Source of the DNA: Oscillospiraceae bacterium | GTDB lineage: Bacteria; Bacillota; Clostridia; Oscillospirales; Acutalibacteraceae | DNA length: 58,351 bases | Assembly (NCBI GenBank): GCA_029012165.1 | Contig: JAQXLO010000065.1 | Span: 1-58,351, forward strand | Reading direction: 5' to 3' | The notes under the pieces: model-generated | What the model was told of the DNA's origin: nothing | What the model saw: only the letters and a program-made list of their open reading frames with translations | The model's database searches: none | Part shown: piece after piece, positions 3,098-58,332 of the stretch | Layout: every line of letters starts with the position of its first letter | How positions within the stretch are numbered: the stretch's first letter is position 1 | Translations under genes and position numbers: made by a program

Positions 3098-4573
3098 TTA
3101 AAGAATGATACAGATCAGCCCGCTGCACCCCTCGTTGATGACTCTTTCCAGCGTTTCCTGAATTCGCATTCGTGCATCGGTGGGCATCTTGTACAGCTTG
3201 TTATGCAGTCCCTCGTTGACCAATTCGTGCAGGGATTTTCCGAAGATGTTGGAGCCCCAGATCTTGGACGGGTTTTCCTCGAATTCCTTTAAAAGGTACA
3301 TCACCAGCTCCTCCGACTGGGATTCCGAGCCGACAATGGGTGCGACCTCGGTGGTGATGTTGGCTTTCATAATGTGCAAAGACGGCGCCGAAGCCCGCAG
3401 ACGCACACCGTACCGTCCGCCCTGCCGCATGATCTCCGGCTCCTCCAGGTGCAGTTCCTCCAGCGTGGGCATGACGATCCCGTACCCCGTTGCCTCCACC
3501 TCATCCAAAGCGGTGCGCAGACGTTTGTACTCCCTCTCCATGGCAGCCAGCGTGCGCATCTTCGTCAGCAGTGCCTGCTCATCGGCGATGTCCATGCCGG
3601 TGGTTTCCGTGAGCACCTTGTAAAACAGCTGCGGCTCGATCACGGCGGTGATCCGTGCACTGCCTGTGGACAGATCCATGGTGTCGATCCGGGCGGAGAG
3701 CAGATAGGCACACTGTCCGACGCTGTCCGCCATGCTCTGAATATCCCGCATATGGGACAAACCCTGTGCCGCTTCCCGCACCGCATCCGTTACGGCGGCA
3801 CGCAGCCAATGGGAGCGCTCCAGCGTCATCAGCCAGTGAGGCAGATCCATGCACACCTCCTTGACAGGGAACTCAAAGAGGATCTGGGAGAGAATGCTGC
3901 GGATCTCCTCCTCCCCCATGGTCATGCAGTTGACCGGCAAAACGGGCACGCCGTACTGCGTGCGCATGGCGGCGGCAGTTTCCCGGGCGGCAGGCGAGTC
4001 CGGTTCGGTGCTGTTGAGCAGGACGATAAACGGCTTGTTCAGCGCCTGCAGTTCGGAGATGACCCGTTCTTCCGCCTGTTGGTACTCCTCCCGGGGGATG
4101 TCGCTGATGGTGCCGTCCGTTGTGACCACAAGGCCGATGGTGGAATGCTCGCTGATCACCTTTTTCGTGCCGATCTCCGCCGCCATGTTGAACGGAATTT
4201 CCTTGTCGAACCACGGCGTTTTCACCATGCGCGGCTGTTCATTCTCGATGTACCCCAGAGAGCTGGGCACGATATATCCCACGCAGTCGATCATCCGCAC
4301 ACGCAGATTGGTGTTGCCCGCCAGCACGATCTCCGCCGCATTCTCGGGAATAAACTTCGGCTCCGTGGTCATGATCGTCCTGCCGGACGCCGACTGGGGC
4401 AGTTCGTCGTTGGCACGCTCTTTTTTGTACACATCACGGATGTTCGGCAGAACCAACGTATCCATGAACCGCTTGATAAAAGTGGATTTCCCCGTTCGCA
4501 CAGGGCCGACGACGCCGACGTAAATGTCCCCGCCGGTGCGGATCGCAATATCGCTGTAGATGTTGCCTTGCAT
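3098..4573 (-). CDS. spoIVA: Stage IV sporulation protein A (spore-coat morphogenetic ATPase)
   Basis: Starts MQGNIYSDIAIRTGGDIYVGVVGPVRTGKSTFIKRF (Walker A) and is 491 aa. The start is set at ATG 4573 behind GGAGGAG. The track ORF extends to 4864 only by reading into the MITE. Confidence 0.93.
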   Translation of the reverse strand: MQGNIYSDIAIRTGGDIYVGVVGPVRTGKSTFIKRFMDTLVLPNIRDVYKKERANDELPQSASGRTIMTTEPKFIPENAAEIVLAGNTNLRVRMIDCVGYIVPSSLGYIENEQPRMVKTPWFDKEIPFNMAAEIGTKKVISEHSTIGLVVTTDGTISDIPREEYQQAEERVISELQALNKPFIVLLNSTEPDSPAARETAAAMRTQYGVPVLPVNCMTMGEEEIRSILSQILFEFPVKEVCMDLPHWLMTLERSHWLRAAVTDAVREAAQGLSHMRDIQSMADSVGQCAYLLSARIDTMDLSTGSARITAVIEPQLFYKVLTETTGMDIADEQALLTKMRTLAAMEREYKRLRTALDEVEATGYGIVMPTLEELHLEEPEIMRQGGRYGVRLRASAPSLHIMKANITTEVAPIVGSESQSEELVMYLLKEFEENPSKIWGSNIFGKSLHELVNEGLHNKLYKMPTDARMRIQETLERVINEGCSGLICIIL

Positions 4574-4700
4574 AGTATCTCCTCCATATTCGCCATTTTC
4601 ACGACAATTCATTTTGTATAAAGATATGTCCCGCCTCGGACAAATATGACAGAGAAAACGAATTCGAGTGCAATAGACTGTTCCGGCTCCATAAAATGCA

Positions 4701-5032
4701 CGCTCTTCACGGAAAATTGTGGGTTTTGTGCTTCGCACTGGGGAACCCCCGGCGAGGGTTCCCCATGCCAAAACAGTCCACCGGACTGTTTTGGCTCCCC
4801 TGCGAGGGGAGCTGTCTGCGCAGCAGACTGAGGGGTTCAAAACGCCGCCGCACGCAGACAGCAAAAGTCAGCGAAAAACCCTCCCGACGAGGCTGACGCC
4901 TCGCCACCCTCCCTCGCAGGGAGGGCTTTCGCTTTGTAAAACCAAACTTTCGCCGGACTTTTTCGACAGTCTGGCAAGCCTTCCCAAAGGCTTGAGAGAA
5001 ACTTTAAATCCCACAAAAATCCGTGATGAACC
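4701..5032 (+). mobile_element. MITE-like structured repeat, copy 1 (variant internal module)
   Basis: The left end CGCTCTTCACGGAAAATTGTGGG and right end AATCCCACAAAAATCCGTGATGAACC are imperfect inverted repeats. Flanking 8-mers are AAAATGCA (4693-4700) and AAAAAGCA (5033-5040), a 7/8 match. It shares the hairpin block GGGGAACCCCCGGCGAGGGTTCCCC / CCAAAACAGTCCACCGGACTGTTTTGG with the other three copies. Confidence 0.8.
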
Positions 5033-5087
5033 AAAAAGCAAAAACGCCGAAGCACGAAGCTTCGGCGCATGAGAAGTTCAGACGGAA

Positions 5088-5294
5088 TCAACCAAAGAGA
5101 TTTTTGAAGAAAAGATAGATCGAATCAATCACGTTGAAGAACGCTTTAACATTGATCGTCAGCTTTTCAAACAGCACGGTGATAATGCCGTAGTCGGTCA
5201 TAGTGACACTGCTGTCTGCGGCAAATGCCGTCACGGAAAGGACGAGCGCCATGACAGCCAGAACACCCACGGTGAAGAAAATTTTTCTGCGCAT
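5088..5294 (-). CDS. Small secreted protein: signal peptide + amphipathic tail only
   Basis: 68 aa with a signal peptide (VTAFAADS) followed by ...VLFEKLTINVKAFFNVIDSIYLFFKNLFG. AAAGGAG RBS. It is the last gene of the tightly spaced 5-gene array. Confidence 0.65.
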   Translation of the reverse strand: MRRKIFFTVGVLAVMALVLSVTAFAADSSVTMTDYGIITVLFEKLTINVKAFFNVIDSIYLFFKNLFG

Positions 5295-5310
5295 AAACGG
5301 TTCTCCTTTC

Positions 5311-6006
5311 TTATGCCTTCTCGCCGTTGAAGATCACATCATACAGCCATGCTTTCACGTAGAGGATGGCGTTGCACACAGCCTTGATCGCCTTCATGAT
5401 CGGCTCGGAAATCGCCTTGCGGATGGAATAGAAGAAGTCCACGATGTAGTACAGGTCGTCCACATCTTCGCTGGTGTTGAGCTTGTGGTTCTTTTCCCAG
5501 ACCGCATAGCAGGCGATGGAGTTGGCCGTCGCATTGAAGTCGGTGACGACCCAGCCGACGAAGGTGTTATCCTCGGAGTAGGCGATGGTAAAGTCGGTGA
5601 AGTCGATGTCACGGATCTCGCCGGGCTGGTTCTTGGGGCACTCATCCCGGACATATTCCACGGCAGAGGGGCTGAAGGCGATGTTGTTGGCATCGGCAGG
5701 CTCCCACTTGCCCTTGGGTCTTGCGTCCACATCGGGATAGTAGAAAACCGTAAGACCCTTCGTTCTGCCGGTCTTGTAGCTGATGATCTGATCGCCGGGC
5801 TTGAGGAGTGTCGCAACGTCGTTGCCTGCCTCCAAGTACTTCAGCGTGGAGAAGTCGGGATCCTGACAGATCTCATAGGTGGAATAGGTTACCGGCTCTT
5901 CGGTGGTTTCGGTTTCCGGCTCCGTGACGTCCTCGGCATACGCTAGCATCCCGGAGAAAGAGAACACTGTTAAAACGGCCAAAAGGACCGCAAGAATTTT
6001 TTTCAT
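5311..6006 (-). CDS. Secreted protein, tail-bearing family (paralog of 7457..8290)
   Basis: Signal peptide MKKILAVLLAVLTVFSFSGMLAYAEDV. It shares KPGDQII...LTVFYYPDVDA and FVGWVV...CYAVWEK (an InlB-B-repeat-like F-GW...YA-W signature) with the 277-aa protein. C-terminal tail: FFYSIRKAISEPIMKAIKAVCNAILYVKAWLYDVIF. Confidence 0.75.
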   Translation of the reverse strand: MKKILAVLLAVLTVFSFSGMLAYAEDVTEPETETTEEPVTYSTYEICQDPDFSTLKYLEAGNDVATLLKPGDQIISYKTGRTKGLTVFYYPDVDARPKGKWEPADANNIAFSPSAVEYVRDECPKNQPGEIRDIDFTDFTIAYSEDNTFVGWVVTDFNATANSIACYAVWEKNHKLNTSEDVDDLYYIVDFFYSIRKAISEPIMKAIKAVCNAILYVKAWLYDVIFNGEKA

Positions 6007-6027
6007 TTCAATAGCTCCTTTCGATCC

Positions 6028-6762
6028 TTATTTTGCACGGATGCCCTTGCCCAGAATCTTTGCCCAGAAAGCGATCAGCTTGGGAACGACCTTGAGCAGG
6101 ACATCGCCGAGCTTGTCTAAGAAAGCGCACCAGTTGGTGTACAGTTTCTCAACGAAGCTCTCGAAGCCGCTGGGTTCACGGGTCTCGTAAACGGCCTTGA
6201 CCTTGATGTTCAGGCTGTTCGCCGTATCGACCACGGAAGTGATCTCCCATGCGGTGACAGTGGTGTACTGATAATAGGTGGTTCTGGCGTAGTCATAGTC
6301 GATGGACAGGGTGATGTCGTTTTTGAGCTTCTCCTGCTCTTCCTTGGGCAGAGCGCTCTGAATCTCCAGACCGGACTTGAAATCGCCGTTTTTGACTTCC
6401 ATTTCATCCACGGAATCGCCGACAGCCTTCACGGTATATGTACCGGCATACAGCTCGCCCGAGGTGAAGGAGGCGACGTTGTCACGGAAAGAAACGAGAC
6501 CGACAAAGGATTCGTTTGCATATTTCTTTTGCAGTGCGCTGGTGACGTTCTCCGCATCCTCTTTGGCGACGGCGTAGGTGAACATGAACGTCTCGCAGGT
6601 GTCAAAGGCGGATGTGATCTTGTCGCCGGGGGTCAGGATCTGACCGACATAGTAGCCGGACTCCGTCTTGTTGGGTTCTTCGGCGTCCTCTGCGGCGGCG
6701 CCCACGGCAAAACAGCCAAAGACGGACAAAACAGCCAGCAGGATCGCAAGTACTTTTTTCAT
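6028..6762 (-). CDS. Secreted protein, tail-bearing family
   Basis: Signal peptide MKKVLAILLAVLSVFGCFAVGAAAEDA. C-terminal tail: FESFVEKLYTNWCAFLDKLGDVLLKVVPKLIAFWAKILGKG. Confidence 0.75.
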   Translation of the reverse strand: MKKVLAILLAVLSVFGCFAVGAAAEDAEEPNKTESGYYVGQILTPGDKITSAFDTCETFMFTYAVAKEDAENVTSALQKKYANESFVGLVSFRDNVASFTSGELYAGTYTVKAVGDSVDEMEVKNGDFKSGLEIQSALPKEEQEKLKNDITLSIDYDYARTTYYQYTTVTAWEITSVVDTANSLNIKVKAVYETREPSGFESFVEKLYTNWCAFLDKLGDVLLKVVPKLIAFWAKILGKGIRAK

Positions 6763-6789
6763 TTTATAATCCTCCTATTGCACAGCCGA

Positions 6790-7431
6790 TCAGACAAGGA
6801 AGCTGCCGATGCGGGCAAACAGCTCTGCCAGATAGTTGATGACGTAGTCGATGACCGTCTTGATGTAGCCGCGCATCATGGTCTTGTAGCCTTCCCAGCC
6901 GGTGAGCGGGGGAATATCCCACTCAGCCTCTAAGATCACGCGGTTGAATTCGGTGCCGGAGTAGACGGAAGTGACCTTCCACTGCTTGAAGCCGTAGCCG
7001 AGATCGCTGGCGTAGTCGATCATGAGGTTGGTCTGACGGGCGCCGTTGATGTAGGCATACTGGGGATAGTCGCCCAGCGCACACACAGCATAGCCGCTGC
7101 CGCTGTAGTCCACGAATTTTTCGACCTTATTGCCGCTGGAGGCGTCTGCGCCTGCACAGTATTCCACGATCAGCACGGCGCTGACAGCCGCTTCCGCTTG
7201 GGCGACAGGCTCCTGCGGATCCTCCTGGGGCTGTTCGGGAAGAAGGATGATGTCGGTGGGGTTGAGGTATGTATCCTGCTTGGCGTCGATGGCCGCCACA
7301 AGATCCTCAATCTTGTATTCCACGGGGGTATAAGCGGGTTCCTCCGCTGCGTCCTCGGCGCTTGCACCGACGGTGAAAATGCCCAGTGCAAGGACGGACG
7401 CCATGAGGATGGCAAGAATCTTTTTCAGCAT
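6790..7431 (-). CDS. Secreted protein, tail-bearing family
   Basis: Signal peptide MLKKILAILMASVLALGIFTVGASAEDA. It contains GYGFKQWKVTS...VILEAEWD (InlB-B-repeat-like). C-terminal tail: YKTMMRGYIKTVIDYVINYLAELFARIGSFLV. Confidence 0.75.
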   Translation of the reverse strand: MLKKILAILMASVLALGIFTVGASAEDAAEEPAYTPVEYKIEDLVAAIDAKQDTYLNPTDIILLPEQPQEDPQEPVAQAEAAVSAVLIVEYCAGADASSGNKVEKFVDYSGSGYAVCALGDYPQYAYINGARQTNLMIDYASDLGYGFKQWKVTSVYSGTEFNRVILEAEWDIPPLTGWEGYKTMMRGYIKTVIDYVINYLAELFARIGSFLV

Positions 7432-7456
7432 GGTATGGTTCCTCCCTTACGCAAAA

Positions 7457-8290
7457 TTAAGCTTCGATGCCGAAAATACCGTACAGCCAGTTGCGCACGC
7501 CGGTATTCAGGATCATCGCCAGTGCAGCATTCAGCAGAGCAGGGACGGCTCTGATCCAGCCGGAAGCAACGCCGATGTAGTACAGAACCTTGTTCATGGC
7601 GTTGATGACGGGATCATCGCTCTCCTCGTAGCCGGGACCGTCGGGCTCCTCAGGCTCTTCGGGAGCGGCGTCTCTGTCCCACAGGGCATACAGCTCGATG
7701 CCGCCCATAGAGGCGCTGGACAGGGAGACGTTGCCGGAGGACTTGAGCATGACCCAGCCGAGGAATTTGGCACCGTCCAGTGCAAAGTCCATGGGAACTT
7801 CGCCTCTGTCCAGAAGTGCAGAGTCTCTGGACATGGCCACGTCACCGAGGTCGGCAATGGTAAAGGCGAGGGTGTCGCCCTTGACAAAGTCGGCGGTGGT
7901 GTAGAAGCTCTTGTAGTAGTTGGGGCTCTTGGCCATGAAATCGTCAACGGTTTCGCCCTTTTCGGCATCGACCGTCCACTTGGTCGTATCCAGATTGTAC
8001 TGCGGCACCTTGACGTCCTTCCAGTCCACATTCTTGCGGTTGCTGGCGCCGATGGCGGCGGCGTCCGGGTAGTAGTACACACGCAGTGTCTTGGTCTTGG
8101 CGGTCAGTGCGCCGATCTCGATCACGTCGCCCGCCTTGAGGATCGCCACCTCGCCATCGGGGGAAGCCTGTCCGATACGGGGCATCTCCGAGAGCTTGTA
8201 CGTGGCGCCCGTTTCTTCTGCGGCGGCGGAGACGGCGACAACGCTGAACGCCATGACCACTGCCAGCAAAACGGCAAGTACTTTTTTCAT
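7457..8290 (-). CDS. Secreted protein, tail-bearing family (first gene of the array)
   Basis: Signal peptide MKKVLAVLLAVVMAFSVVAVSAAAEET. It contains KAGDVIE...LRVYYYPDAAA and FLGWVM...LYALWDR, then an acidic/Pro linker EEPEEPDGPGYEESDD. C-terminal tail: VINAMNKVLYYIGVASGWIRAVPALLNAALAMILNTGVRNWLYGIF. Confidence 0.75.
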   Translation of the reverse strand: MKKVLAVLLAVVMAFSVVAVSAAAEETGATYKLSEMPRIGQASPDGEVAILKAGDVIEIGALTAKTKTLRVYYYPDAAAIGASNRKNVDWKDVKVPQYNLDTTKWTVDAEKGETVDDFMAKSPNYYKSFYTTADFVKGDTLAFTIADLGDVAMSRDSALLDRGEVPMDFALDGAKFLGWVMLKSSGNVSLSSASMGGIELYALWDRDAAPEEPEEPDGPGYEESDDPVINAMNKVLYYIGVASGWIRAVPALLNAALAMILNTGVRNWLYGIFGIEA

Positions 8291-8475
8291 TAATGATTCC
8301 TCCTTAAGAAAATCGTCTGAACTACCGGGTCGGGGTTTCCAATCCGATTCAAAATTATTCTAAACGATTTCTTTTATTTTTACAAGAGGAAAACGTAATT
8401 TTGTCAAATTTTTTTGTTCATTCACCGTCAGGTTGCCTATACTTTCCGTTCATTTTTTGTGCAGAATGCTGTTTT

Positions 8476-8769
8476 TTACAAAAAAGAGGAGGATAGAATT
8501 TTCTTTATCGAATTTAAGATTGCGGCAATATTTCCCACCGGGTACGGCAGGCAGCAGAACCACTCCCGAAACGCCGGCAGATGCAGCTTGTCCGACAGAC
8601 GGGTGAGCGTCTGCTGCACAGGCGTGTCCGTCTGCACGGAAGCCTCCACCCCCGACGCCATGTATTCCGTCCGCCGGGCAACGATGGTCGTCCCCGCCGC
8701 CAACAGGGTCAGGCAAAGACAGATCGTTTGAATCAAAAAAAATGCTCGAAGTAATTTACGGGTCTGCAT
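8476..8769 (-). CDS. Hypothetical small membrane protein downstream of spoIIP
   Basis: ATG 8769 lies 6 nt after AGGAGG, which sits inside the spoIIP 3' end. The product starts MQTRKLLRAFFLIQTICLCLTLLAAGTTIVA (one TM). Third-position GC is high through most of the ORF. No family recognised. Confidence 0.45.
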   Translation of the reverse strand: MQTRKLLRAFFLIQTICLCLTLLAAGTTIVARRTEYMASGVEASVQTDTPVQQTLTRLSDKLHLPAFREWFCCLPYPVGNIAAILNSIKKILSSSFL

Positions 8770-9865
8770 TCGACTCCTCCTGTACATACTGCTCCAGCAT
8801 TTGCGCCAGCGCATGACCGAACAGCCGCCCGGAATAGACGGCTTCCTGCAATGTGTTCGCCTCGCTCCCGAACTCCACCAGCAGGGAACAGGGCGTCAAA
8901 TCCATATTGTACTTCCGATAGCAGAAAAAAATGGGGCGCATCAGCGTGGGCGCAGACGCTTCACACGCATCCTGCAAACGCAGTGCAAAGCGGAAATTCC
9001 GCTCCCAAGTGCTGAACTCCTGCGCACTGCCGGTGCCGCCCTGTGTCCCGGCGATGAGCATGATCTGTGCCGCCTTTTTGCCGTGCACCGTCGTGACGGG
9101 CTTTACCTTGGTGCCGTTGTTCTCCTGAATCGCATCCCGGTGCACATCCAAAACCACGGACAGCTGCGGGTACTGCTTCAGATATTTTTCCACCGTTGCA
9201 CGGGAGCGATCGTAGGCGCCGCTGTATTTCCTGTCGTGCACCGTCTTGTCATGGATCACCTGAAAGCCCGCCGCCTCCAGTTCCTGCGCAATCGCCGTGC
9301 CCACCCGGGCGACATTGCGGTCGGTGTCCTCTGTGCGTGTGGTCACGTCCGCCGCATACCAATCCCTGTCCAGCGTCTCATAGCCTTCGGTGGTATGGGT
9401 ATGGTAGATCAGCACCGCCGGCTTCGATTTGTCCACGGTCAAATCGGGGCCTGTTTCCCACGCTTCGTCATAGTCCGGCTCCACGTCCTCGGTCATGTTG
9501 CGGATAAACAGATTGCGAAACTTTTCCGTGGCGTAGGTGCCGTCATAGGTCGTTTCCCGGATGTCGCCGTCCTTTTTCTGACGGCTCTGCTCTTCCTTTG
9601 CCTGTTCGATCCATGCCAGTATATCTGCCGGCGTCTGCGTCAGACCGCCCGACAGGACGGGAGCCGCCTGCGCAGGTGCCGATACGGCGGACGCCTGAAA
9701 ATACTGCCGTACCTGCATCATCCCGCCCTCCGGCAAGGCGGCACACGCCGCCAAAAACGCCAGCCGCTGCGTCATGCTCTGGGGCAGGACGAACACGCAC
9801 CCCAAAAGCAATACCGTCAAAAAAGTCATCAGCGGTTCGGACAGATCGGACAGTTTCTTTTTCAA
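8756..9865 (-). CDS. spoIIP: Stage II sporulation protein P (engulfment amidase family)
   Basis: N-terminal TM, then KPAVLIYHTHTTEGYE ... SVVLDVHRDA ... IMLIAGTQGG, the SpoIIP pattern. It follows gpr, as in many Firmicutes. The start is TTG 9865 and is uncertain. Confidence 0.85.
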   Translation of the reverse strand: MKKKLSDLSEPLMTFLTVLLLGCVFVLPQSMTQRLAFLAACAALPEGGMMQVRQYFQASAVSAPAQAAPVLSGGLTQTPADILAWIEQAKEEQSRQKKDGDIRETTYDGTYATEKFRNLFIRNMTEDVEPDYDEAWETGPDLTVDKSKPAVLIYHTHTTEGYETLDRDWYAADVTTRTEDTDRNVARVGTAIAQELEAAGFQVIHDKTVHDRKYSGAYDRSRATVEKYLKQYPQLSVVLDVHRDAIQENNGTKVKPVTTVHGKKAAQIMLIAGTQGGTGSAQEFSTWERNFRFALRLQDACEASAPTLMRPIFFCYRKYNMDLTPCSLLVEFGSEANTLQEAVYSGRLFGHALAQMLEQYVQEESNADP

Positions 9866-9926: not shown

Positions 9927-10790
9927 TTATGAGACCAGCATCAGAATCTCCTCGCAGGACAAATGCGGCTGCAGTGCCTTGTTGACCGCCAAAGCCAGCA
10001 GCCGTGCGGCACGCTCGATCACCAGATCGATCTCCCGGGGCGTGATCATCATATCCGCCCCCTCCCGCAAAAGGGCGCCGTTCTCCTCCTGCGTCAGGTC
10101 GTGCACCAGCGTGGCGGCATCCACCACCGTCGGCACACCCACGGCAATCACCGGCACGCCGAGGCTTTCCCGGGTAAGCGCCTTGCGGGCATTGCCTACG
10201 CCGGAGCCGGGGGTCACGCCCGTATCCGCCATCTGAATGGTGCATCCCAAACGGGACAGGCGTCTTGCCGCCAACGCATCCACGGTAAGCACGGCGGACG
10301 GCTTCGCCATCTCCACGGCGCCCCGCAGCAGTTCCCCGGTCTCCATCCCCGTTTTGCCCAGAACGCCGGGAATCAGATTGACCACCGGCCGCAGATCCCC
10401 CAGACCGGTGGAATGCGCCAGTTCCTGCTCGATATGCCGTGTAGCAAACACCAAAGCCGAAAACTTCGGCCCCAATGCGTCCGGCGTGATATCCCCGTTG
10501 CCCAGTCCCGCCACCAAAATCGTCCCCTGCTCGGGCAAAAGCGTGCGAAGCTCAGATGCAATGTCCTCCACGAGCGGGTCGGTGATTTCCGCATTGCGCC
10601 GAAAGGGCGGTACCTCCACCGTGATGTACCGTCCCACCGGCTTTCCCAGCGCACGGGCGCCCGTTTCGTCCTGCACGCAGATACGTGTGATGCGCATCCC
10701 CGGCTTCTCCTGCACCATGCAGGTCACGCCTTGGGGCGTTTGCTCCATACTTTCCTGCATCTCCAGCGCCAAGTCTGTCCTGTAATCCAT
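9927..10790 (-). CDS. gpr: Germination protease (GPR endopeptidase)
   Basis: MDYRTDLALEMQE...ITRICVQDETGARALGKPVGRYITVEVP...ILVAGLGNGDITPDALGP...IAVGVPTVVDA, a typical GPR. It is divergent from rpsT, the conserved arrangement. Confidence 0.9.
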   Translation of the reverse strand: MDYRTDLALEMQESMEQTPQGVTCMVQEKPGMRITRICVQDETGARALGKPVGRYITVEVPPFRRNAEITDPLVEDIASELRTLLPEQGTILVAGLGNGDITPDALGPKFSALVFATRHIEQELAHSTGLGDLRPVVNLIPGVLGKTGMETGELLRGAVEMAKPSAVLTVDALAARRLSRLGCTIQMADTGVTPGSGVGNARKALTRESLGVPVIAVGVPTVVDAATLVHDLTQEENGALLREGADMMITPREIDLVIERAARLLALAVNKALQPHLSCEEILMLVS

Positions 10791-22046: not shown

Positions 22047-22276
22047 CGTTCTTCACGGAAAATTGTGGGATTTGTGTTTCGCACCGGGGAACCCCCGGCG
22101 AGGGTTCCCCACGCCAAAACAGTCCACCGGACTGTTTTGGCTCCCCTCCGGCGCTTTTGGTGGTGGTTGGATTTCGCCGACTGCGGTCGGCGACCAAAGG
22201 CGCCGCCTTTGGAATCCGCAAGCCTTCCCAAAGGCTTGACCGAAACTTTTAATCCCAAAAAAATCCGTGATGAACC
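22047..22276 (+). mobile_element. MITE-like structured repeat, copy 2 (cleanest copy)
   Basis: TIRs CGTTCTTCACGGAAAATTGTGGGATT and (reverse complement) GGTTCATCACGGATTTTTTTGGGATT. A perfect 8-bp direct repeat GATTTATT flanks it (22039-22046 and 22077-22084). The interior is a chain of six perfect hairpins. Confidence 0.85.
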
Positions 22277-23445: not shown

Positions 23446-23520
23446 TGGAGCTGATGGTCGGAATCGAACCGACAACCTGCTCATTACGAGTGAGCCGCTC
23501 TGCCATTGAGCCACATCAGC
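23446..23520 (-). tRNA. tRNA-Thr (anticodon CGU)
   Basis: Reverse complement: GCTGATGTGGCTCAATGGCAGAGCGGCTCACTCGTAATGAGCAGGTTGTCGGTTCGATTCCGACCATCAGCTCCA. Acceptor stem 7 bp, D arm GCTC/GAGC, anticodon stem GCTCA/TGAGC with loop CTCGTAA, T arm GTCGG-TTCGATT-CCGAC, encoded CCA. A hairpin with a T-run lies at 23421-23444. Confidence 0.92.
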
Positions 23521-24302: not shown

Positions 24303-24496
24303 TAAAAAATCCTGCAAGCGTCAGGTGGACGTTTGCAGGAAAACCAACAATGGACGGCACAGCCATGCGACCGCACCAAGGTGCATCCTCTCCCGTCCGG
24401 ACTTTTACCGTCGGTATCGGAATTGCACCGATTCAGCCTTGCGGCTCGCAGACTTTTACTGCCGGTGGGGACTTTCACCCCGCCCTGAAGATGGTT
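24303..24496 (-). promoter_or_regulatory. FMN riboswitch (RFN element) with terminator expression platform
   Basis: The reverse complement reads ...ATCTTCAGGGCGGGGTGAAAGTCCCCACCGGCAGTAAAAGTCTGCGAGCC...GAATCGGTGCAATTCCGATACCGACGGTAAAAGTCCGGACGGGAGAGGAT, which matches the conserved RFN cores. It is followed by CCTGCAAACG...CGCTTGCAGG and a T-run (24303-24339). Confidence 0.9.
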
Positions 24497-33551: not shown

Positions 33552-33641
33552 TTCTCGGTATCAACGAAGTGATCGCCGTCATCCTTGCGAAGTACGCTTT
33601 TCAATGGGCAGGCGAGATTCCGAAATAATAGAAAGAAGAAA

Positions 33642-34016
33642 CGTTCTTCACGGAAAATTGTGGGATCTGTGCTTCGCACCGGGGAACCCCCGGCGAGGGT
33701 TCCCCACGCCAAAACAGTCCACCGGACTGTTTTGGCTCCCCTCCTGCGCATTTCTGTTGTCAGGGCAATACCGCACAGATTGGGGTATGCGGATTGCGAA
33801 GTAAGATTTTTTGTCAGGTTGCACAGAAAGACCGCCGACTTGCTGACGCAAGTCAAGGGATTTTTGTGTAAACTGACGGAATAAGATTCAAGCAAGGCGT
33901 GTGCCGCAATTTGTGTGGTGTTGCCCAAGATTTCGCCGACTGCGGTCGGCGACCAAAGGCGCCGCCTTTGGAATCCGCAAGCCTTTAAAAAGGCTTGACC
34001 GAAACGTTTAATCCCA
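33642..34016 (+). mobile_element. MITE-like structured repeat, copy 3 (expanded interior, degenerate right end)
   Basis: The left TIR and first hairpin block are intact. About 180 bp of unique sequence (33745-33925) sits between the two conserved hairpin blocks. The right end stops at AATCCCATTAAAAT without the CCGTGATGAACC terminus. I see no clear TSD. Confidence 0.7.
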
Positions 34017-58103: not shown

Positions 58104-58332
58104 GGTTCATCACGGATTTTTGTGGGATTAAAAGTTTCGCTCAAGCCTTTTTAAAGGCTTGCGGATTCCAAAGGCGGCGCCTTTGGTCGCCGACCGCAGT
58201 CGGCGAAATCCTAACAAAAGAAAAGCGCAGGAGGGGAGCTAAAACAGTCCGGTGGACTGTTTTGGCGTGGGGAACCCTCGCCGGGGGTTCCCCGGTGCGA
58301 AGCACAAATCCCACAATTTTCTGTGAGGTGCG
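58104..58332 (-). mobile_element. MITE-like structured repeat, copy 4 (inverted orientation)
   Basis: About 90 percent identical by eye to copy 2 over its full length when reverse-complemented. It is flanked by the identical 8-mer ATTTTTTT (58096-58103 and 58333-58340). Confidence 0.85.

Follow-up and report, generated by a model that had tools for sequence, protein, structure and literature searches.

The window analysed here, 58,351 nucleotides (nt) of contig JAQXLO010000065.1 from an Oscillospiraceae bacterium, harbours a minus-strand array of five genes at positions 5088-8290, here named G1 to G5. The operon and its protein families are previously undescribed. Sequence features support that G1-G5 are Sec-type exported proteins, and each of them ends in an amphipathic helical tail that is specific for its family. 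As a plausible, still tentative reading it is proposed that the five proteins form a heteromeric complex at the cell surface, in which the tails pack into one helix bundle and the putative lipoprotein G3 serves as the tether.

Five co-encoded exported proteins

An earlier note on this DNA described five tandem minus-strand genes with gaps of 16-27 nt, and both coordinates and gaps are as it claimed. The intergenic gaps G1-G2, G2-G3, G3-G4 and G4-G5 measure 25, 27, 21 and 16 nt, respectively, and all five genes have an ATG start with an AGGAG(G) ribosome-binding site 6-9 nt ahead of it. Translation of the genes together and to similar levels would be in keeping with the short gaps and the strong ribosome-binding sites. 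In the encoded N-termini an n-region with K/R residues (MKK/MRRK) precedes the hydrophobic core, and behind the core comes an A-x-A site with E/A-D/E next to it. The cores reach approximately -2 kcal/mol as a simple sum over 19 residues on the Hessa scale; this and the other Hessa values given below are such sums and not the output of the full position-dependent predictor. The presence of signal peptides and their A-x-A pattern were as described earlier. Near-identical, as they had been called, they are not: K3, L5 and A6 are the sole residues invariant across G1-G5, and G5 begins with MRRKIFF. The description of the fifth protein as essentially a signal peptide plus a tail is accurate.

Beyond signal-peptide noise, G1-G5 have no match in Pfam, NCBIfam, PHROGs or PADLOC, and none among PDB sequence profiles. 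No description of such a tail or operon was found in the published literature.

Conservation and selection

The operon occurs in the same gene order at at least 14 further loci (at least 15 with the window). All carriers are uncultured Acutalibacteraceae-like Clostridia, every one known as a metagenome-assembled genome. Only 5 of 185,579 GTDB species representatives harbour the operon, all of them rumen or gut genomes labelled Acutalibacteraceae, Ruminococcaceae or Clostridia. Searches among 5.8 billion clustered proteins yielded 38 relatives of G1, 60 of G3 and 68 of G4. Gene set, gene order and similar gene sizes are kept in every locus long enough to judge, and locus L018 carries a much more divergent five-gene version with products of 278, 203, 248, 260 and 85 amino acids (aa).

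Comparison with the closest locus (L007) gave ratios of nonsynonymous to synonymous substitution rates (dN/dS) of 0.24 for G1, 0.26 for G2, 0.11 for G3, 0.10 for G4 and 0.06 for G5, and in the same comparison the tails are constrained at least as strongly as the rest of the proteins. Judged by these ratios all five genes are under purifying selection. Strong purifying selection is seen in G5 even though the helix is its only domain. Because of the low dN/dS values and the recurrence across loci, G1-G5 are regarded as real, selected genes. The locus is syntenic and vertically inherited, and a mobile or accessory context was not found, which fits better with a core envelope function than with an accessory toxin.

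Family-specific helical tails

The tails are 37-52 residues long and often comprise two helices. Their amphipathic helical nature, put forward in the earlier note, agrees with hydrophobic-moment analysis for G2-G5: the highest 18-residue hydrophobic moment of each of these proteins falls in the tail (0.53-0.60), with median tail values of 0.45-0.55. A periodicity of 95-100 degrees was found in all families except G4. The agreement is weaker for G1: its tail is less amphipathic and exceeds the other four in hydrophobicity (1.8-10 kcal/mol, so that a few orthologues are borderline). Hessa sums for the other families are 7.8-13.5 (G2), 6.2-11.6 (G3), 7.0-9.4 (G4) and 5.1-7.8 kcal/mol (G5). Because insertion energies of the tails are thus around +5 to +10 kcal/mol, compared to approximately -2 kcal/mol for the signal peptides, the tails are not ordinary transmembrane anchors, as had been supposed on account of their amphipathicity. 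AlphaFold2 modelling of G1 as a monomer placed two helices in the tail (residues 227-248 and 250-273) at a predicted local distance difference test (pLDDT) score below 55; for G3 a single 43-residue helix (residues 199-241) was predicted with pLDDT values of ~73-88.

Also the statement that the tails match no described sorting signal holds in Pfam and NCBIfam scans. The NCBIfam anchor and CTERM models did not match the tails, and a match to dockerin (PF00404) was not found in Pfam, the tails having no D/N/G-rich loops. An LPXTG-like motif is absent in G1-G5, and the tails end in neutral or acidic residues.

The tails had been presented as one common segment, and this part of the earlier description did not survive. 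Each of the five hidden Markov model (HMM) profiles built from the tails retrieves its own orthologues only, with 0 cross-family matches, and no other open reading frame (ORF) with such a tail is present in 265 kb (window and loci). Polar tail columns of G1-G4 are conserved (0.61-0.73) to a similar degree as hydrophobic ones (0.63-0.72). The net tail charge, in contrast, is not conserved and ranges from +6 to -13 between operons; in L017 and L018 every subunit tail is acidic. This variation argues against simple electrostatic membrane binding. Homologues P0161 and P0162 continue beyond the tail with hydrophilic, Pro-rich extensions. A shared sorting signal or anchor was rejected on the family-specific profiles, the conservation of both faces and the variable charge. 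Taken together, the conservation of both helix faces within each family, the varying charge and the strict co-occurrence of the genes suggest that the tails are engaged in specific protein-protein packing rather than in generic lipid binding.

PBP5 and PBP6 of Escherichia coli are exported proteins with a cleaved signal peptide and a C-terminal amphipathic helix that is not transmembrane. G1-G5 are likewise exported and have their amphipathic helix at the extreme C-terminus. Each tail might then be an independent anchor lying in the plane of the membrane, with the paralogues tethered separately and no complex formed. The high hydrophobic moment, aromatic richness and terminal position of the tails agree with this, as do the Pro/Glu-rich spacer ahead of the G1 tail and the Lys-rich G3 tail in the window (+4). 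The explanation is nevertheless considered doubtful. The strongly acidic tails in L017 and L018 do not suit it, family-specific conservation of the polar face is unexpected for a generic lipid-binding helix, G5 would be an anchor with nothing to anchor, and some homologues run past the tail, as mentioned above. Unlike in PBP5/PBP6, five family-specific tails are co-encoded here, one of the products is no more than a tail, the charge of the polar face varies, and the sequences are unrelated to those of PBP5/PBP6.

A lipobox-like cysteine in G3

G3 has a [G/S]-C dipeptide at residue ~17 in 30 out of 30 sequences, in a pattern resembling PROSITE PS51257, a feature that was overlooked in the earlier note. 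Similar patterns occur in 0-1 sequences of each of the other families. Since an invariant Cys would be pointless if signal peptidase I removed it, lipidation of G3 is suggested; G3 is probably a lipoprotein and could tether the complex. With lipoproteins matured by Lgt and Lsp G3 shares the n-region with K/R residues, the short hydrophobic core and the [G/S]-Cys fitting PS51257. It differs from them in atypical -3/-2 positions and in a hydrophobic stretch plus an A-x-A site, inherited from the paralogues, after the Cys, so that lipidation is regarded as putative.

The invariant Cys, which suggests retention on the producer cell, also bears on the view that the operon encodes a secreted membrane-active system resembling a toxin or bacteriocin, with tails that co-insert into a target membrane and Flg_new-like heads that bind the target. 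Several amphipathic helices are indeed co-encoded, G5 resembles a Sec-dependent peptide, and the small membrane ORF upstream of the operon could in principle encode an immunity protein. However, the operon belongs to the vertically inherited core and keeps its synteny, its mature peptides are not cationic but neutral to acidic, and toxin, bacteriocin or defence families were not matched in Pfam, NCBIfam, PHROGs or PADLOC. A system of this type is therefore held to be very improbable.

Passenger domains

G1 and G4 are paralogues (hhalign probability 99.6%, 165 columns), and so are G2 and G3, which align over their whole length including the tails (96.6%, 200 columns). G1 aligns with G2, and G4 with G3, in the signal peptide and in a PGD.I motif only. 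Yet when a combined G1+G4 profile was used for an exhaustive HMM search, G2-type proteins were recovered nearly full-length (P0178, E=1e-14), and because of this the G1-G4 passengers are taken to belong to one superfamily, which by sequence comparison has grown by tandem duplication.

Profile positions ~142-197, comprising an F.GW...YA.W unit, match true Flg_new repeats in giant surface proteins. In P0176 the G1+G4 profile matches 14 stretches (E=4e-16), where Pfam counts 15 repeats, and it also matches P0185, P0190, P0207 and P0188. According to Pfam and NCBIfam the matched regions in all five proteins are Flg_new/TIGR02543. This confirmed the F.GW...YA.W unit, at the level of profiles, as a divergent Listeria-Bacteroides (InlB B) repeat. 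The earlier claim of an InlB-B-like unit in four proteins thus stands at profile level for G1 and G4; for G2 and G3 it follows from their homology to G1/G4 alone. With G1-G5 themselves, no match to the Flg_new, Flg_new_2 and TIGR02543 models was obtained, E values up to 1 included. Tandem repeats of ~65-70 residues are not present in them: they have one unit each, and neither alignments nor AlphaFold2 models display an internal repeat.

In P0188 (232 aa) a signal peptide is followed by two genuine Flg_new repeats and a linker rich in Pro, and the C-terminus (CKWCGKTHDGFFQKIVGFFHNIFAAIFGAKY) is aromatic and amphipathic. This protein hints that aromatic amphipathic tails may be more widespread on Clostridial surface proteins of the Flg_new type.

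AlphaFold2 predicts the passenger domains as compact and beta-rich, with pLDDT values above 90 (in G1 at residues ~28-206; the mean pLDDT of G3 is 84.2). In Foldseek searches of the PDB with the G1 and G3 models, and of BFVD with the G3 model, nothing matched at E<=0.001; the top matches had E=0.04-0.05 and template modelling (TM) scores below 0.2.

Transcription unit and genomic neighbourhood

G1-G5 are predicted to be one transcription unit, preceded by a sigma-A-type promoter found in a consensus scan and closed by an intrinsic terminator that lies 20 nt past the G5 stop codon (Table 1). A TTGnnA-N17-TA(G/C)AAT promoter is aligned at the equivalent position in 11 out of 11 closely related loci, and the distant loci L012, L015, L018 and L019 have analogous TTGCnn-N17-TAnAAT promoters. 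In the 5' untranslated region (UTR) each locus, with the window and L001-L014 among them, folds a stem of 5-8 bp at a similar place and distance from the -10 box. The sequences of these hairpins differ and their z-scores are modest (-0.5 to -3.3); RNAalifold detected no consensus structure, only the individual hairpins fold. The hairpin could be an mRNA-stabilising 5' stem-loop. An Rfam scan of the operon region gave no match.

Table 1 Features of the operon and its surroundings in the window
Feature	Position (nt)	Strand	Description
SpoIVA	3098-4570		strong Pfam/NCBIfam scores
Intrinsic terminator	5034-5068	-	G+C-rich stem of 10 bp (7 of them G-C) with a T-tract; TTTTGCTTTT comes after the stem
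G5	5088-5294	-	68 aa; only signal peptide and ~40-residue amphipathic helix
G5 tail	5091-5201	-	
G4	5311-6006	-	231 aa
G4 tail	5314-5457	-	two helices, terminal motif WLYD.IF
G4 Flg_new-like unit	5491-5607	-	
G3	6028-6762	-	244 aa: signal peptide, beta-rich domain, single long amphipathic helix
G3 tail helix	6031-6168	-	residues 199-241
G3 Cys17 codon	6712-6714	-	
G2	6790-7431	-	213 aa: signal peptide, small N-terminal domain, Pro/Glu linker, beta domain, tail
G2 tail	6793-6906	-	motif GW(A/E)G..M.RGYIKT.IDY.I.YL
G1	7457-8290	-	277 aa: signal peptide, ~180-aa beta-rich domain, Pro/Glu-rich linker, two-helix tail
G1 tail	7460-7615	-	conserved end motif R.WLYGLFGIEA
G1 Flg_new-like unit	7673-7795	-	closes the beta-rich domain
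5' UTR hairpin	8317-8352	-	short, weak feature
Sigma-A-type promoter	8357-8385	-	TTGTAA-N17-TAGAAT; -10 box at 8357-8362
Small membrane ORF	8476-8766	-	~96 aa, single-pass, LLPAPVGN motif; overlaps the end of spoIIP
SpoIIP	8756-9865		strong Pfam/NCBIfam scores
Gpr	9927-10790		strong Pfam/NCBIfam scores

Pfam and NCBIfam identified the flanking genes as those named in the earlier note, spoIIP/gpr on one side and spoIVA on the other. Between spoIIP and G1 lies a small ORF with an LLPAPVGN motif that was not noticed at the time. This ORF has no Pfam match. It is conserved in 8 loci (~96-116 aa), in each case immediately ahead of the operon; L012 has it despite the deletion of gpr and spoIIP there, and in L015 its C-terminal end can be seen. 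Functionally it may go with the operon rather than with spoIIP.

The upstream gene order is conserved (rpsT, gpr, usually spoIIP, and the small ORF). The downstream neighbour varies: spoIVA is found in the window and L013 only, and elsewhere ATP synthase genes, iscS/thiI, spoIIIA, TetR/dnaK or, in L018, lepA follow. In L005 and L014 spoIIP is lacking at the operon site. In L012 gpr is reduced to a remnant encoding 51 N-terminal residues (49% identity, E=8e-13) and spoIIP is gone, with the operon intact. In this locus (GCA_024693205.1, JAILLJ010000080.1) positions 6771-7316 hold an ORF of 181 aa that joins the Gpr remnant, in the same frame, with the small membrane ORF. It is the scar of a deletion in which most of gpr and the whole of spoIIP were lost, and it suggests that sporulation may have been lost in the lineage.

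From the location of the array it had been speculated that the proteins have a role in the spore. They would then be exported to the forespore intermembrane space or the spore surface, with expression by read-through from gpr/spoIIP. In nearly all loci the operon is indeed directly downstream of rpsT-gpr-spoIIP and the small ORF, spoIVA, spoIIIA or spoVAC is often nearby, and with no terminator found from the small ORF to G1, read-through is possible. A conserved sigma-A-type promoter belongs to the operon itself, however, and no conserved -35/-10 pair for a sporulation sigma factor was seen in the aligned upstream regions. A candidate sporulation promoter picked out by eye (GCACA...GGTGAtaATGA) was rejected: its two elements are 18, 21 or 33 nt apart, depending on the locus, and in one locus it lies inside coding sequence. 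Because of the sigma-A-type promoter, the variable downstream genes and the L012 deletion, in which the operon persists with a 51-residue Gpr remnant and no spoIIP at the locus, a dedicated role in the spore is unlikely, and the sporulation hypothesis as a whole is regarded as improbable. The loci without spoIIP at the site (L005 and L014) agree with this. The order in Bacillus subtilis is rpsT-gpr-spoIIP-yqxA-lepA, and the lepA gene downstream in L018 thus points to inherited synteny. The position beside sporulation genes appears to reflect inherited gene order and not to be evidence of a spore role.

Several other elements were observed in the window. An intergenic element of ~115 bp with stacked perfect hairpins is repeated at ~4700-4870, ~22050-22210 and ~33640-33800 in nearly identical form, and at ~58180-58300 as a rearranged copy. 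Its core consists of GGGGAACCCCCGGCGAGGGTTCCCC followed by GCCAAAACAGTCC-NNN-GGACTGTTTTGGC, and a 13-mer of the element has 12 occurrences (<=2 mismatches) compared to 1.8 expected. The element looks like a repetitive extragenic palindromic (REP) sequence or a miniature inverted-repeat transposable element (MITE), and one copy is located between the operon terminator and spoIVA. A flavin mononucleotide (FMN) riboswitch at 24381-24496 (minus strand, 109 bits) and a tRNA gene at 23449-23520 (minus strand) are ordinary and unrelated to the operon.

A possible surface complex

The operon may have arisen when a gene for a secreted surface protein of the Flg_new (InlB B-repeat) type was duplicated in tandem, and it would be transcribed constitutively from its sigma-A-type promoter. 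After Sec-dependent export the amphipathic tails of G1-G5 would pack into one hetero-oligomeric helical bundle, and the resulting complex, with its subunits in about equal amounts, would sit on the outside of the cytoplasmic membrane. In it, G5 would contribute to the bundle only, and a lipid anchor at the N-terminus of G3 would hold the whole to the membrane; some further membrane contact may come from the G1 tail, which is hydrophobic by comparison. Pro/Glu-rich linkers would carry the beta-rich passengers out towards the wall or the surroundings, where they would probably serve in binding or adhesion.

The distribution of G5 fits this proposal. All 12 complete five-gene loci have G5, and the 3 loci with a long G4 lack it. 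These three (L012, L015 and L017, a sister clade) have four genes, and their G4 proteins of 272-308 aa have an additional C-terminal helix. This complementarity is what fusion or fission of interacting helices would produce. Sequence support is weak, however, and the idea that G5 split off from the additional helix of long G4 is kept as a suggestion only.

Several points weigh against a lipid-tethered helix bundle. Its formation, like lipidation, location at the cell surface and a function in binding, is inferred. In the comparison of G5 with the extra helix of long G4, hhalign gave a non-significant E=0.15, and in an HMM test only 1 of 5 long G4 forms beat its own shuffles; the four-gene loci, moreover, look like a single clade, which may represent one evolutionary event. 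For G3, the strict lipobox, written as L-[AS]-[GA]-C or as [LVI][ASTVI][GAS]C, is found in only 2 of 30 sequences, the A-x-A site for signal peptidase I is retained 7 residues past the Cys, and the distant L018 G3 has no Cys. Finally, the passenger domains are without structural neighbours (in the PDB for both models, in BFVD for G3).

Relation to known surface proteins

Surface retention in Gram-positive bacteria is known to proceed by sortase and LPXTG motifs, lipoproteins, transmembrane anchors, or wall-binding repeats and modules (LysM, GW, SLH, CWB2, dockerin-cohesin). With Flg_new proteins (PF09479, TIGR02543) G1-G4 share the F.GW...YA.W unit and, putatively, the status of Sec-secreted surface proteins of Firmicutes. 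They differ in having a single divergent unit that remains below the Pfam and NCBIfam thresholds and, in G1, a ~180-aa domain without a neighbour in the PDB; furthermore, G1-G5 have neither LPXTG nor GW anchors. The cohesin-dockerin system of rumen Clostridia resembles the complex proposed here in the use of a short C-terminal module for non-covalent assembly at the surface. Here, however, Pfam detects no Ca-binding repeats or cohesin partner, and the contact would be between helices of co-encoded paralogues.

The operon might represent an undescribed way of building and retaining surface complexes in monoderm bacteria, in which four to five co-encoded Sec substrates are joined by a tail bundle with a helix-only subunit and a lipidated G3, and display a passenger fold unseen in the PDB. 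This is thought possible, on balance rather unlikely. The principle behind the tails may, in a looser form, also apply to further Flg_new proteins of Clostridia, of which P0188 is an example.

The distribution of the operon is narrow and its architecture distinctive; its adjacency to spoIIP and spoIVA is no evidence of a role in sporulation. If the proposal is true, co-encoded helix-tailed subunits holding each other at the membrane would be an additional route of surface retention, and abundant uncultured Oscillospirales of rumen and gut would harbour several new protein families and a new fold.

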